Positions 57,855-62,793 of a stretch of DNA of 64,000 bases are shown piece after piece. The position numbers were made by a program, and so were the translations under genes. Each line of letters opens with the position of its first letter. The first letter of the stretch is position 1. The stretch lies in sequence record PQ863253.1. One strand, written 5' to 3'. The notes beneath the pieces were generated by a model. The model saw nothing but the letters and a program-made list of their open reading frames with translations, made no database searches and was not told where the DNA came from. This DNA comes from Escherichia phage Ptacy1496.

Positions 57855-58067
57855 TCATTTTTGTCCTGTATTTACTTTATGCCGATGCACGGCCTTAACT
57901 TTATCAAGGTATTTTTCAAAATTTCGCAATCTAGTATAGTCTGCCGGAGATTGGTTGAGTGATACTTCTCGACGCAAAGCTGAAATGATATTTCCAACTT
58001 CCCTACGAATTTCATCTAATTGAAGAACAGTAAGATTGCGAAGTTGCTTTTCAGTTAATTGTAGCAT
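57855..58067 (-). CDS. hypothetical protein (rI.1 position)
   Basis: 70 aa ORF. Confidence 0.45.
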
Positions 58068-58109
58068 ATATACCCCTTTAGTTAGATAAACCTATTTATA
58101 ACTTTTGCA

Positions 58110-58691
58110 CTAACCGAGCTTTTTAGTTAATTCATTCCAATGTTTTCTACACAAAGAAACATAAATTTCATCACCAATACAGATTTGATTACCTTCTTTA
58201 ACTGGTGTTCCATCTTCCATTAATCGAGCTGTCATAATAGCTTTTTTACCACAATGACAAACTGCCTTTAGTTCAATAAGTTTATCTGCAATCGCCAAAA
58301 GTTCTTTAGAACCTTCAAATAATTTTCCAGCGAAATCAGTCCTTAGCCCATAAGCCATAACAGGAACATTATATGTATCAACAATTCGACTTAATTGATG
58401 CACCTGTTCAGTTTTTAAAAACTGAGCTTCATCTACAAATACACAATGAATATCTTTTTGTGCTTCAGCCCATTTATAGAACTCAAAAATATCCATATCA
58501 TCCGTAATAATATTCGCTTCCTGCTTAATTCCAATGCGAGAAACGACTTCACAGACAGAATCGCGAGTATCAATAGCAGGCTTAAGAACTAATACACCCA
58601 TTCCGCGTTCTTTATAATTATGTGCAGCAGTCAAAAGAGAAGCAGATTTTCCAGCATTCATTGCTGCGTAAGTAAAAATTAAACTCGCCAT
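58110..58691 (-). CDS. tk: thymidine kinase
   Basis: 193 aa as in T4 Tk; P-loop AAMNAGKS. Confidence 0.95.
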   Translation of the reverse strand: MASLIFTYAAMNAGKSASLLTAAHNYKERGMGVLVLKPAIDTRDSVCEVVSRIGIKQEANIITDDMDIFEFYKWAEAQKDIHCVFVDEAQFLKTEQVHQLSRIVDTYNVPVMAYGLRTDFAGKLFEGSKELLAIADKLIELKAVCHCGKKAIMTARLMEDGTPVKEGNQICIGDEIYVSLCRKHWNELTKKLG

Positions 58692-58700
58692 ATCACCTTC

Positions 58701-58886
58701 TTAAAGCATATTCACATAAGCTATTAATTCGTTTTCTTTCTTATCAAACCGATCAGCAAATTCTTCTTGCTGTTCGGGAGATAGCGGGCCGTATTCATCA
58801 TAAAAGGTGTTTGCTTCTGTATGCTCATCTAGAAGTTCATGGATAAGCTCAAACAATTTATCTTTTTGTTCTTTACTCAGACTCAT
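58701..58886 (-). CDS. hypothetical acidic protein
   Basis: 61 aa ORF. Confidence 0.4.
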   Translation of the reverse strand: MSLSKEQKDKLFELIHELLDEHTEANTFYDEYGPLSPEQQEEFADRFDKKENELIAYVNML

Positions 58887-59052
58887 ATATTAATTTCCAG
58901 GAGTTTTAAAATAATTCGCTTTTGCTTAAATATTTCCATAGTTAAATGACCAGTATCTTTTTGACCGATTCCAATGGCAAAACCTTTATTGACAGCGAGT
59001 TCAATTAAATTATCAAGCTCACGTAACACTTCATACTGTAACTCAAAACTAT

Positions 59053-59265
59053 TCATTTCGGTTTACCTTCTTTAACGAAATCTGGATAAGGATAAAATCC
59101 CGAATAAAATCCTTCACCTTTATGATTGATGCATCCTTTATTAGAACAATAGCACCAATAATCGAAATCACAAGCCATTTCATCGTTGCATAAAGCAAAA
59201 ACAACTGGCCATTTACACTTTTCACAATGGGCATTTTTAAGAATACTAGTTTGGCTCATAACCAT
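59053..59265 (-). CDS. Cys-rich small protein (putative zinc binding)
   Basis: 70 aa with 9 Cys including CEKC and CYC pairs. Confidence 0.4.
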   Translation of the reverse strand: MVMSQTSILKNAHCEKCKWPVVFALCNDEMACDFDYWCYCSNKGCINHKGEGFYSGFYPYPDFVKEGKPK

Positions 59266-59465
59266 GTAACCTTTAAGCAGTATTCTTCTACATGCTGTTT
59301 ACGACCTTTCTTATCAATAAAGGTATATTCAACGAATGTTCCAATGTAGTCTTTATCTACATCATGCGGACTATTAATTGGACATTTAGTACGGCAAATG
59401 CGTTCCCATTGACGAATAATTACTGCCTTATTCTTTGGGTCATATGGATGTGGATAATGTATATT
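59256..59465 (-). CDS. hypothetical protein
   Basis: ORF track 59256..59483; start moved to MNIHYPHPYD. Confidence 0.35.
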   Translation of the reverse strand, partial: NIHYPHPYDPKNKAVIIRQWERICRTKCPINSPHDVDKDYIGTFVEYTFIDKKGRKQHVEEYCLKVTWL

Positions 59466-59932
59466 CATAATAACGGTTCCCAATCAACAATCACAATTTC
59501 TAATTTAGAGGAATATGTATCTAAAATCCCCTCAATAATATCCCAGTTCCCTTTACCTATGCCTGCACCAATCCTAGGCATATAGATTGTAGGTTTAATC
59601 AGTTTATTTTCACCAAACTCATTTAATTCTAACATACAATTCATTAAAGCGGAATACTCAAAATTTGGCCCTGGTTGAAATTGAGTATAAAGGTTGAAGC
59701 AATACGCTTTATGAGTCCTAAAGTATTTTTCATAGACTGAGTAAGAACCGAGTTTAGTTACATCACCCCATTCAGTCTGTAATTTATCAGCTTCCAAAAT
59801 TTTAGGGAAAGCTTTGGTTAATTGACCCGCTACGCCTGAACCCATAGTATGAAAACAATTGCATCCATGCGCAATATTTTTACCTTCAGCGAAAAGGGCG
59901 ACAATATCGCCCTTGATATATTTTACAATCAT
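59465..59932 (-). CDS. macro-domain protein (ADP-ribose binding/hydrolase-like)
   Basis: 155 aa; GDIVAL...NIAHGCNCFHTMGSGVAGQL and PRIGAGIGKG resemble macro domain glycine-rich loops. Confidence 0.5.
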   Translation of the reverse strand: MIVKYIKGDIVALFAEGKNIAHGCNCFHTMGSGVAGQLTKAFPKILEADKLQTEWGDVTKLGSYSVYEKYFRTHKAYCFNLYTQFQPGPNFEYSALMNCMLELNEFGENKLIKPTIYMPRIGAGIGKGNWDIIEGILDTYSSKLEIVIVDWEPLL

Positions 59933-60270
59933 CTAGTACTCAATCCTCGATTATAAGAATCTACCAAACGGTCAACCATTGAATGACAAGCGGCTTTATC
60001 TTTCTCCTCCGCAACTGAACATTCTAAGGTATTCCACTTTTTAGCATATCGTTTTAATAATGCATCGTTTTTGTATCTGCTTGATTTATCTCTTTCTCCG
60101 TCTTTATATGCATATATTAATTTCTGCGCAAATTCAGCTTGGCATGCTTTATTTTTCCCACAATAATCCGCGGCAGTACGGTTTACATACTCTCTAATTT
60201 CAGTATATGATGTATCTGCTAACGCAGAAAATGAAATTAATCCTATACATAAAACCAAAATTTTAGTCAT
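59929..60270 (-). CDS. secreted protein
   Basis: 113 aa; signal peptide MTKILVLCIGLISFSALA. Confidence 0.45.
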   Translation of the reverse strand: MTKILVLCIGLISFSALADTSYTEIREYVNRTAADYCGKNKACQAEFAQKLIYAYKDGERDKSSRYKNDALLKRYAKKWNTLECSVAEEKDKAACHSMVDRLVDSYNRGLSTR

Positions 60271-60808
60271 TTACTATTTCCAAAAGTTTATTATTTTTAA
60301 GGTAATTAGCCTTTTCTAGGACTTCAGAAGCATATTTAGAACCAGCTTTAACATTCCATCCCGAATTATAAGAGGATATTGCTTTTCTTATATCGCCCTT
60401 ATGTATATTTAACCAATAAGAAAGTTCAATGTACGCCCAGGAAGCTGAATTGGACCGTTTATTCAACATTCTTTTTATTTCAGCATCGGTCATATTATAA
60501 CCAAGTTCCTTGACTCTCGCTCGCATAGTAGGCAAATAATTTTGGAACATTCCATAGGCATGATGCTTTGGTTTAGATTTTAAATTAACTCCGCCAGAGC
60601 TTTCTTGCCATAAAATAGCAGCCATTATATAACCTAATCCGCTCTTGTGGATATTTTTGTGTGTTTTATATTTTCCATCCTTAGAAAATTGTTCCCCGAA
60701 TTGATACGCGTAACGCATGTTATCGAGTTGGACATTACTGAAAGTATGCTCGGAGCTATGTGCCATCATTGAAATGGCCAATAGACCAGCGAGTAGTGCT
60801 TTTCTCAT
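60263..60808 (-). CDS. secreted lytic transglycosylase-like protein (SLT domain)
   Basis: 181 aa; signal peptide; catalytic-region ES followed by GMFQ motif. Confidence 0.55.
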   Translation of the reverse strand: MRKALLAGLLAISMMAHSSEHTFSNVQLDNMRYAYQFGEQFSKDGKYKTHKNIHKSGLGYIMAAILWQESSGGVNLKSKPKHHAYGMFQNYLPTMRARVKELGYNMTDAEIKRMLNKRSNSASWAYIELSYWLNIHKGDIRKAISSYNSGWNVKAGSKYASEVLEKANYLKNNKLLEIVND

Positions 60809-60815
60809 GCTTACC

Positions 60816-61277
60816 TCATTGAGTTTTAATTACTGCTTTAGAAGCCTTTCCTGGTAAACGACGACTATTGATAATTGCCATCCTGCATTGAAGCGACGGG
60901 TCTTTGAACTTCGCATTAGGTTTACAAACTGTAAATCCAAGCCAAAGATTTCCATCTGTGATTTCTAAACGTCCAGGACGGTATTCAACCCCATCAATAA
61001 AATCCTCATCAATGTCAGGACGCGGAGGCATACTCAGGAATTCATTAACTTCTAAAACATGGTCTTTTATTTTGTGGAATAATTCAAAAACATATGTCTC
61101 ATCAATCTCCCGTTGAATTGCACGATCAAGAAGATGCTGAGAATATTTTAGATGAAACGATGAGACCCCTGCTGCTTTTGATGCCTCACGAATCTCATTG
61201 TTAATTTGACGAAACTCCGACTCAAAGTGACGACGAAGCTTATTTCGACGGATAAAAACTTCTGTATTGATAGTCAT
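60816..61277 (-). CDS. regB: endoribonuclease RegB
   Basis: 153 aa as in T4 RegB. Confidence 0.9.
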   Translation of the reverse strand: MTINTEVFIRRNKLRRHFESEFRQINNEIREASKAAGVSSFHLKYSQHLLDRAIQREIDETYVFELFHKIKDHVLEVNEFLSMPPRPDIDEDFIDGVEYRPGRLEITDGNLWLGFTVCKPNAKFKDPSLQCRMAIINSRRLPGKASKAVIKTQ

Positions 61278-61304
61278 GTTGTTCTCCTCTTAACTGATAG
61301 AAAA

Positions 61305-61334
61305 ATTATACCACAGTCAAGAGGAAAAGTAAAC
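61305..61334 (-). promoter_or_regulatory. phage early promoter
   Basis: plus strand ATTATA-18nt-GTAAAC upstream of regB. Confidence 0.65.
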
Positions 61335-61336
61335 AG

Positions 61337-61615
61337 TTATTCTTTAAATCTAATCAATTTATTCATAGACTTTGAAACTTCTGCACGAACCTCATGTAGA
61401 TTTTTGAGCTGTTCAAGACGCTGCTCATAGTAAGCAATTTCATCTTCTTCGAGACAGTCCTGTGAATCTTCTTTAAGATACCGTGCATAGTCCTGGAAAG
61501 CGTTACGGACTACTTCCTGGAAGTCATCAAGACTTTGAATTTTCTTAGGAGCAGCAGACACACGACGAGGGGCAGTATAATACTCATAACCAAACCCTGC
61601 GCTTAATTGAGCCAT
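61337..61615 (-). CDS. hypothetical protein (vs.3/vs.4 region)
   Basis: ORF track 61337..61657; start moved to MAQLSAGFG (92 aa). Confidence 0.4.
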
Positions 61616-61917
61616 TAATATTTTTCCTCTGGTTGGAACACAGCACGACAAGCCCACATACTGGCTTCTTTGAGTTTCATTTTAGCAATAGCTAACTGAT
61701 CGAGGCTTTCAGCATAATTCTTCGCGAGTTCAAAGTCTTCGCAATTATCTAGTGCTTCCCAGAATTCATCATATAAAGCATCAAAGATAAGTCCTAAACG
61801 AACTTCAGCGTCTTTAATAGCATTTACTTTACCGATTTTTTCGTCGGTATGTGGCTTATAACCTTTAATATCTTCAATCATATTTGACTTCCTCACCAGT
61901 ACATAAATCGTATTCAA
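61615..61917 (-). CDS. hypothetical protein (vs.4 position; T4 vs.4 is the cyclic-nucleotide sponge Acb2)
   Basis: 100 aa ORF; assignment positional only. Confidence 0.35.
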
Positions 61918-62095
61918 CTAAACGAATAGGTTCATGAATGCCATATCCCTGAACAGAAATTTCTGTCGTAGGATAAATTCCACTAATATCACCCATATTC
62001 CACGCTTCATTAAATTGCTGTTCGCCTGAATTACTAAACCATTCTGCGAAAGCATTTAACACATCTTTAGAACCTTCAATAATTATCTTTGCCAT
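61874..62095 (-). CDS. hypothetical protein
   Basis: 73 aa ORF. Confidence 0.35.
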   Translation of the reverse strand: MAKIIIEGSKDVLNAFAEWFSNSGEQQFNEAWNMGDISGIYPTTEISVQGYGIHEPIRLVEYDLCTGEEVKYD

Positions 62096-62457
62096 TACAA
62101 GCTCTCAGTAAAGGTACGAGCGATAACGTCGCGCTGCTGTTCCGGAGTCAGAGAGTTAAAGCGAACTGCATAACCGGATACACGGATGGTCAGCTGCGGA
62201 TATTTTTCCGGATGCTTAACTGCATCTTCCAGAGTTTCACGACGCAGAACGTTAACGTTCAGGTGTTGACCACCTTCAATTTTAACTGTAGGCTGTTGCT
62301 CAATTTCAATTTCACGGGCATGCAAACCATAGAAAATTTCTGGGTCTACAAAAGAGTCCTCTTTAAAGGTTTTAGAGACAATAATTCGTGCTTGAATACC
62401 ATCTTCAAAATAAATAGTACCTTTATGTGTGCCTTCAAGAATTTGATATGCTTTCAT
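62095..62457 (-). CDS. autonomous glycyl radical cofactor (GrcA/YfiD-like; T4 Y06I homologue)
   Basis: 120 aa; C-terminal ...[32 protein letters not shown] matches recalled E. coli GrcA; GC-rich 3' half. Confidence 0.85.
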
Positions 62458-62463
62458 ATAACC

Positions 62464-62793
62464 TCAATTAGAAAATAATTTTATCCAAGATTGTTCTTTA
62501 ATTAAAAATGGCTCAGAATCATATGCCATTAAACTTTGAGTAATTAATCCTTTAAATGGTCCATCAATAAATTCCATGGTAAAATATGGAATTTTATTCA
62601 TTAATCTTGCATTAGGAGCAGTGCACAAAACTCTGCATCCTTTGAATACACCTTTTTGTAATTTGTATTGCTTGGGATAAAATTCGCTCAAGACGTTGTT
62701 ATTTGCCAAAATTTCAAAATGATTCACCAATTTATTTTTAATAGTTTTTGGCGAAAAATAAAGATATTCGAAAAGTTGCGTATCTGTCATCAT
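62464..62793 (-). CDS. hypothetical protein
   Basis: ORF track 62464..62844; start moved to internal ATG abutting upstream gene. Confidence 0.4.
   Translation of the reverse strand: MMTDTQLFEYLYFSPKTIKNKLVNHFEILANNNVLSEFYPKQYKLQKGVFKGCRVLCTAPNARLMNKIPYFTMEFIDGPFKGLITQSLMAYDSEPFLIKEQSWIKLFSN

Follow-up and report, generated by a model that had tools for sequence, protein, structure and literature searches.

The genomes of T4-like phages contain a short open reading frame (ORF) whose predicted product resembles an ADP-ribose-binding macrodomain, raising the question of what ADP-ribose-bearing target it acts on and with what kind of active site. In the 64,000-nucleotide window of Escherichia phage Ptacy1496 analyzed here, the first-pass annotation had recognized this ORF at 59465-59932, between tk and regB, and had offered three readings for its product: reversal of DarT-type DNA ADP-ribosylation, erasure of the phage's own Alt/Mod marks, or degradation of ADP-ribose-derived immune signals.

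Identity of the gene and macrodomain class of its product

The ORF encodes 155 amino acids from ATG to TGA on the minus strand, in agreement with the length and coordinates first given, and its location between tk and regB is borne out by the annotations of T4 and of near-identical phages. The features that define its setting are as follows:

59465..59932, minus strand: tk.4 (adfM) coding sequence, 155-aa single-domain macrodomain protein
58110..58691, minus strand: thymidine kinase gene, downstream of tk.4, placed from annotations of near-identical phages and T4
60816..61277, minus strand: regB, upstream of tk.4, placed from the same annotations
59929..59932, minus strand: ATGA overlap of the vs stop with the tk.4 start, from ORF coordinates and sequence, indicative of translational coupling
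59465..59468, minus strand: ATGA in which the tk.4 stop overlaps the initiating ATG of tk.3; the minus strand reads ...TTATTATGAATATA

The gene is a member of a minus-strand chain with overlapping stops and starts, and T4 has the same vs/tk.4 overlap (61386/61389), with the tk.3 end at 60925 and the tk.4 start at 60922. The product is identical to T4 Tk.4 (NP_049723) at all 155 positions, while the coding sequence differs from that of T4 by six nucleotides, each of them synonymous, indicating that tk.4 is under purifying selection. On the basis of sequence and tk.3-tk.4-vs synteny, the ORF is the ortholog of T4 tk.4. The surrounding 5.5 kb matches many Tequatrovirus genomes at 99.4-99.9% identity, and the window represents a close relative of T4 rather than T4 itself: vs (valyl-tRNA synthetase modifier; 59929..60270, minus strand) has 113 codons compared to 115 in T4, and the product of vs.4 is 94% identical to its T4 counterpart.

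Assignment of the product to the macrodomain superfamily is supported by three concordant lines of evidence: a sequence profile, a sequence search against solved structures, and the predicted fold. Pfam Macro (PF01661) matched Tk.4 over profile positions 2-113 of 118 with a score of 27.7 bits (E=2.9e-6), above the curated gathering cut-off of 22 bits; the best PDB match was Bacteroides BT1257 (2fg1/2afc) at ~28% identity; and the predicted fold has the three-layer alpha/beta/alpha architecture of macrodomains. By both sequence and fold, all of the closest relatives belong to the ALC1-like (TARG1/DarG/SCO6735/Poa1p) class, of which Tk.4 is a free-standing member. The glycine-rich loops on which the macrodomain reading was originally based are found at two places in the alignment with solved macrodomains:

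59824..59845, minus strand: MGSGVAG (M30-G36), first glycine-rich loop, putative ADP-ribose-binding
59549..59578, minus strand: PRIGAGIGKG (P119-G128), second glycine-rich loop, putative phosphate-binding

MGSGVAG (30-36) and IGAGIGKG (121-128) align with the ADP-ribose- and phosphate-binding loops of TARG1, DarG, and SCO6735, the former with the MGKG/MGAG motifs of DarG and TARG1. Among 118 homologs, G33 and A35 are invariant in the first loop, as are P119, I121, G122, and G124 in the second. Within the latter, K127 (codon 59552..59554, minus strand) belongs to the T4-type sequence GIGKGNW; 106 of the 118 homologs have glycine instead (GIAGGDW), and lysine is common to only five. K127 may be a T4-subgroup-specific contact to the DNA backbone.

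The macrodomain assignment itself, made correctly from the letters alone, is not new: an A1pp/macro match of tk.4 orthologs was reported in 2006 (PMC1524935), and the role of the protein against DarTG2, described below, has also been published.

Glutamine in place of the catalytic lysine

Tk.4 and its relatives were aligned with sequences from PDB entries and with PhiKZ gp104 (also named AdfM), whose sequence was taken from its paper. For Mycobacterium tuberculosis DarG and TARG1, the sequences used agree exactly with the PDB entries, and the others came from the hit alignments. The published residue numbers were reproduced, supporting the accuracy of the alignment, which places the following elements in the candidate active site:

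59857..59869, minus strand: HGCN motif (H22-G23-C24-N25); H22 and N25 correspond to His24 and Asn27 of SCO6735, and N25 to DarG N22 and PhiKZ AdfM N23
59681..59683, minus strand: codon of Q84, in the column of the catalytic lysine (DarG K80, TARG1 K84, PhiKZ AdfM K78) and of SCO6735 Gln85

The aligned residues of the individual proteins are:

Tk.4 H22: SCO6735 H24, TARG1 H32
Tk.4 N25: SCO6735 N27, DarG N22, PhiKZ gp104 N23
Tk.4 Q84: SCO6735 Q85, TARG1 K84, DarG K80, PhiKZ gp104 K78
Tk.4 G122/G124: SCO6735 G126/G128
Tk.4 G126: TARG1 D125 (catalytic)

Glutamine occupies the position of Q84 in all 118 database homologs and likewise in each of 80 bacterial genome loci; N25 is kept in 117 of the 118 homologs and H22 in 113. 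As aligned, Tk.4 lacks the catalytic lysine of DarG as well as both members of the Lys/Asp dyad of human TARG1 (OARD1), in which K84 and D125 stand opposite Q84 and G126. Yeast Poa1p, which has a known activity on a small molecule, differs as well, with serine at the Q84 position.

The glutamine arrangement of Tk.4 is known only from Streptomyces coelicolor SCO6735 (PDB 5e3b), which takes thymidine-linked ADP-ribose off DNA and shields cells from DarT (PMC9411070). There, the Q85A substitution causes complete inactivation and N27S almost complete inactivation; in the proposed mechanism, the glutamine, locked by the asparagine, positions the distal ribose, and the proton comes from an activated water (PMC9411070). 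Tk.4 shares with SCO6735 the glutamine at the catalytic position (Q84=Q85), the conserved asparagine (N25=N27), H22, G122, and G124. BT1257, the best structural match, is itself a close SCO6735 homolog (E=1e-53) and shares its ANMIGQ motif, whereas the Tk.4 family has signatures of its own, HGCNC and YTQ, and Tk.4, unlike either SCO6735 or BT1257, is phage-encoded and has a counter-defense role. The DNA-positioning lysines of SCO6735 are also missing, with S32 in place of K34 and the five-residue insert bearing K89 absent, suggesting that Tk.4 must handle DNA differently. Scored against the Tk.4 family profile, SCO6735 reached 55 bits, no higher than TARG1 (58 bits) or M. tuberculosis DarG (54 bits); the likeness to SCO6735 is therefore one of active-site residues rather than of close relationship.

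Identity with a DarG antitoxin was considered and rejected. The DarG equivalog model (NCBIfam NF048014) scored Tk.4 at 30.3 bits versus a cut-off of 250, and the match covers only positions 2-146 of 338 (2-145 of 329 in another DarG model), with no C-terminal DarT-binding domain. The DarG proteins of DarTG2 systems (M. tuberculosis, 5m3i; T. aquaticus, 5m31/5m3e) possess Lys80 and a second, DarT-binding domain and are encoded beside darT; Tk.4 has Gln84 in the column of K80, and its gene adjoins vs and tk.3, with no darT neighbor.

Role against DarTG2 and proposed mechanism

Direct genetic evidence on function comes from a November 2025 preprint (HIDEN-SEQ; bioRxiv 10.1101/2025.11.20.689424), in which a T4 transposon library was grown on E. 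coli carrying DarTG2 and tk.4 was the only gene to score significantly. A clean tk.4 knockout sensitized T4 to DarTG2, and the gene was dispensable on plain E. coli K-12, being needed only when DarTG2 was present. The authors pointed out a structural likeness to the macrodomain of DarG and gave the gene its new name, adfM, for anti-DarT factor macrodomain; enzymatic removal of ADP-ribose from DNA, in their words, "seems likely," with support of a genetic kind. Since the two proteins are identical, the requirement on DarTG2 hosts is assumed to transfer to the Ptacy1496 gene. Of the activities first offered for the ORF, reversal of DarT-type DNA ADP-ribosylation is the one that this screen and knockout favor.

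Taken together with the active-site comparison, these data make it probable that Tk.4/AdfM is a macrodomain that hydrolyzes ADP-ribosyl-thymidine in single-stranded phage DNA via an SCO6735-like, glutamine-type site. In the proposed sequence of events, the host toxin DarT2 places ADP-ribose on thymidines of single-stranded phage DNA, blocking replication; the two glycine-rich loops of Tk.4 would bind the ADP-ribose; and hydrolysis of the N-glycosidic bond between ribose and thymine would restore normal DNA. The active site (H22, N25, Q84, and G122/G124) would be of the glutamine type, as in SCO6735, for which the model has an asparagine-held glutamine positioning the distal ribose while water does the chemistry, in a place where DarG and TARG1 use lysine. 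Because the glutamine arrangement is common to both proteins, SCO6735-like hydrolysis is the most likely chemistry for Tk.4. From these comparisons we infer that protection is enzymatic, that ADP-ribosyl-thymidine in DNA is the substrate, and that Q84 is essential.

Protection might instead be mainly noncatalytic, with Tk.4 binding and inhibiting DarT2 directly or masking ADP-ribosylated sites. Such an effect has precedent, in that the dead variants SCO6735 Q85A, DarG K80A, and TARG1 K84A inhibited DarT in vitro, SCO6735 most strongly (PMC9411070), and the purely genetic T4 data (10.1101/2025.11.20.689424) are compatible with it. However, Tk.4, at 155 aa, has no counterpart of the C-terminal DarT-binding domain of DarG, no DarT was detected within 6 kb of 80 bacterial homologs in a single-sequence search, and the conservation of H22, N25, Q84, and G122/G124 in homologs from phages and bacteria alike points to selection for catalysis. 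As the principal explanation, this mode of action is unlikely; as a partial contribution, DarT binding of this kind is possible.

Also improbable, and somewhat more so, is a primary role as a small-molecule enzyme, either a Poa1p-like ADP-ribose-1''-phosphate phosphatase or an O-acetyl-ADP-ribose deacetylase, with the DarTG2 phenotype being secondary. Many macrodomains exhibit weak Appr1p phosphatase activity in vitro, for which we know of no physiological role. The existing database names imply an activity of this type: the RefSeq label of NP_049723 is "phosphatase; contains A1pp phosphatase motif," many GenBank records name the gene "macro domain protein" or "Poa1p-like," and JGI annotations point in the same direction. 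These names, however, are transferred from the domain, the alignment places serine rather than glutamine at the Q84 position of Poa1p, and the sole tk.4 phenotype found is specific to DarTG2 (10.1101/2025.11.20.689424), a specificity for which such labels offer no explanation.

A third possibility, broader than the one raised in the first-pass annotation, is that Tk.4 erases or edits the ADP-ribosylation or RNAylation marks that Alt, ModA, and ModB place on host proteins. The best-known of these marks are on arginine (e.g., Arg265 of the RNA polymerase alpha subunit), and arginine-linked ADP-ribose is removed by ARH/DraG-type enzymes; to our knowledge, ALC1-like macrodomains do not cleave this linkage, which argues against such a role. 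Alt/Mod is also absent from many of the bacteria and phages in which homologs are found. T4 does have three ADP-ribosyltransferases, macrodomains and ADP-ribosyltransferases often co-occur in large myoviruses (PMC9503650), and both SCO6735 and TARG1 act on Glu/Asp-linked ADP-ribose of proteins (PMC9411070). Yet T4 can do without tk.4 on plain E. coli K-12 and needs it only when DarTG2 is present (10.1101/2025.11.20.689424), and a search for supporting evidence found none, so that editing of the phage's own marks is considered very unlikely.

Degradation of ADP-ribose-derived immune signals such as the cyclic ADP-ribose isomers of Thoeris, the remaining activity suggested at first, is the least credible reading and is regarded as highly improbable. 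The known anti-Thoeris proteins are sponges with unrelated folds. Tk.4 has no specific similarity of this kind, its match there being far below those to the ALC1-like group, and neither genetic nor biochemical evidence for the activity was found in the literature searched.

ADP-ribosyl-thymidine hydrolysis, the favored reading, also has to be placed among the other T-even anti-DarT factors, AdfN (gene 30.3, NADAR) and AdfA (61.2). AdfN parallels the role proposed for AdfM, being an orphan ADP-ribosylglycohydrolase that frees phage DNA of ADP-ribose (PMC11825919), but it has the unrelated NADAR fold, targets the guanine-linked ADP-ribose that DarT1 produces, and gives no protection against DarTG2 (PMC11825919; 10.1101/2025.11.20.689424). 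A role for Tk.4 as the T4 anti-DarTG1 factor was rejected on the same grounds, since that function belongs to AdfN/30.3 (PMC11825919). As for the mRNA ADP-ribosyltransferase system CmdTAC, T4 escapes it via alt.-3 mutations, and the CmdTAC paper makes no mention of tk.4.

Carriage of the gene makes T4-like phages resistant to DarTG2, a toxin-antitoxin defense that stops replication by thymidine ADP-ribosylation, and as such bears on phage host range and on the choice of phages for therapy. The chemistry of Tk.4 bears in turn on the generality of a lysine-independent mechanism and on homologous phage and bacterial macrodomains as candidate DNA de-ADP-ribosylases.

Distribution, origin, and expression

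Relatives of Tk.4 were detected by tblastn in 2,750 of 50,697 phage records, including T4-like, FelixO1-like, PAK_P1-like, Ackermannviridae, Vibrio, Aeromonas, Campylobacter, and Streptomyces phages, a distribution that agrees with a survey in which macrodomains were the commonest ADP-ribose-processing domain of large myoviruses (PMC9503650). A scan of species-representative genomes yielded at least 519 loci, many of them lying on chromosomal contigs of megabase size, for example from Rhodobacteraceae, Desulfobacteraceae, Hymenobacter, and Shewanella. The best 80 of these at least 519 loci are standalone genes of ~140-160 aa. No DarT-like ORF was detected within 6 kb of these 80 homologs by single-sequence phmmer, a search of limited sensitivity that may miss distant DarTs, and they have no recurrent neighbors except for lineage-specific housekeeping synteny. 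One homolog assigned to bacteria comes from a "Bacilli bacterium" MAG (GCA_051648945.1): its 44-kb contig (JBOFGC010000414.1) also carries the T4-like phage genes for Rnl1 RNA ligase, Dda-like helicase, PNKP, spanin, and dCMP deaminase and is probably a misbinned phage contig. On this contig, the Tk.4 homolog lies between RNA ligase 1 and the helicase and adjoins a DUF4326 gene.

PhiKZ gp104 provides a functional parallel. This nucleus-targeted standalone macrodomain counters DarTG2 (Cell Rep 2026, PMC13309987) and removes ADP-ribose from DarT2-modified DNA in vitro (PMC13309987). Orthology with Tk.4 was rejected, as BLASTP returned only a 23-residue match (E=0.005), and gp104 was the lowest-scoring reference against the Tk.4 family profile (36.9 bits). 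Its motifs are DarG-like (FPTKDNW with Lys78, PPLG, and NGGL), in contrast to the glutamine-type motifs of Tk.4 (YTQ, PRIG, and GKG). Judged from sequence, the two proteins are analogous and not orthologous, and the single name AdfM covers what appear to be two independent recruitments. According to the PhiKZ paper, there was no earlier report of a macrodomain Adf (PMC13309987), and the names were given independently.

The glutamine signature, together with the standalone bacterial loci near which the single-sequence search detected no DarT, suggests that T4 AdfM goes back to a free-living cellular macrodomain lineage rather than to a DarG antitoxin. AdfN offers a contrast, its closest relatives being the DarT1-associated DarG1 NADARs (PMC11825919). 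Beyond the published assignments, the present comparison thus suggests a glutamine-type, SCO6735-like active site for T4 AdfM and an origin separate from those of DarG and PhiKZ AdfM. The fuller proposition, that T4 AdfM descends from a separate, widespread standalone glutamine-type lineage, represented in over 2,700 phage genomes and hundreds of bacterial chromosomes, that removes ADP-ribose from thymidine by an SCO6735-like, lysine-independent mechanism, is given somewhat better than even chances. If it holds, phages would have recruited erasers of the DarT2 mark at least twice independently (T4-type with Gln, PhiKZ-type with Lys), and the bacterial members would be general DNA de-ADP-ribosylation "repair" enzymes, whose substrate range might extend to other ADP-ribosylating defenses or toxins.

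The ORF was also said to lie in a block of small genes where T4 counter-defense functions cluster, a description that fits one neighbor. Vs.4/Acb2, a cGAMP sponge that inhibits CBASS, is encoded ~1.7 kb upstream of tk.4; the other small neighbors (tk.1-tk.3, vs.3, and vs.5) are without known function.

61615..61881, minus strand: Vs.4/Acb2, 88-aa ORF, 83/88 residues (94%) identical to T4 Vs.4/Acb2

Two of the five substitutions in Vs.4 fall within the T4 stretch NCEDCEF, which reads NCEDFEL here. In minimal medium, the strongest depletion of any T4 gene was reported for the adjoining vs (HIDEN-SEQ preprint, 10.1101/2025.11.20.689424).

In its database deposition, the region is called the T4 "early region." A consensus scan of 58000-62500 found 13 promoter-like sites, below the 17.8 expected by chance, and four terminator-like sites compared to 2.5 expected, and revealed nothing specific about tk.4 expression. 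The best sigma-70-like match in these 4.5 kb (61305..61333, minus strand; TTTACT, 17 nt, TATAAT, with an extended -10 TG) is located just upstream of regB and may drive the regB-vs.1-vs-tk.4 chain as an early promoter. Inside the 5' end of tk.4, the plus strand at 59894..59914 contains an 8-bp GC-rich hairpin (AAGGGCGACAATATCGCCCTT) followed by a T-run, which is terminator-like in the orientation antisense to tk.4; on the sense strand, the same sequence forms a hairpin at codons 7-13 of the tk.4 mRNA. Terminator-like sites around tk.4 occur at near chance frequency. In phage T2, RIL-seq captured the tk.4 mRNA in association with ArcZ, an sRNA of the host, and with other sRNAs, and Tk.4 protein was present in the proteome of infected cells at a level unchanged in a delta-arcZ host (2026 preprint); the label given to tk.4 in that preprint, "putative thymidine kinase," is a mis-annotation.
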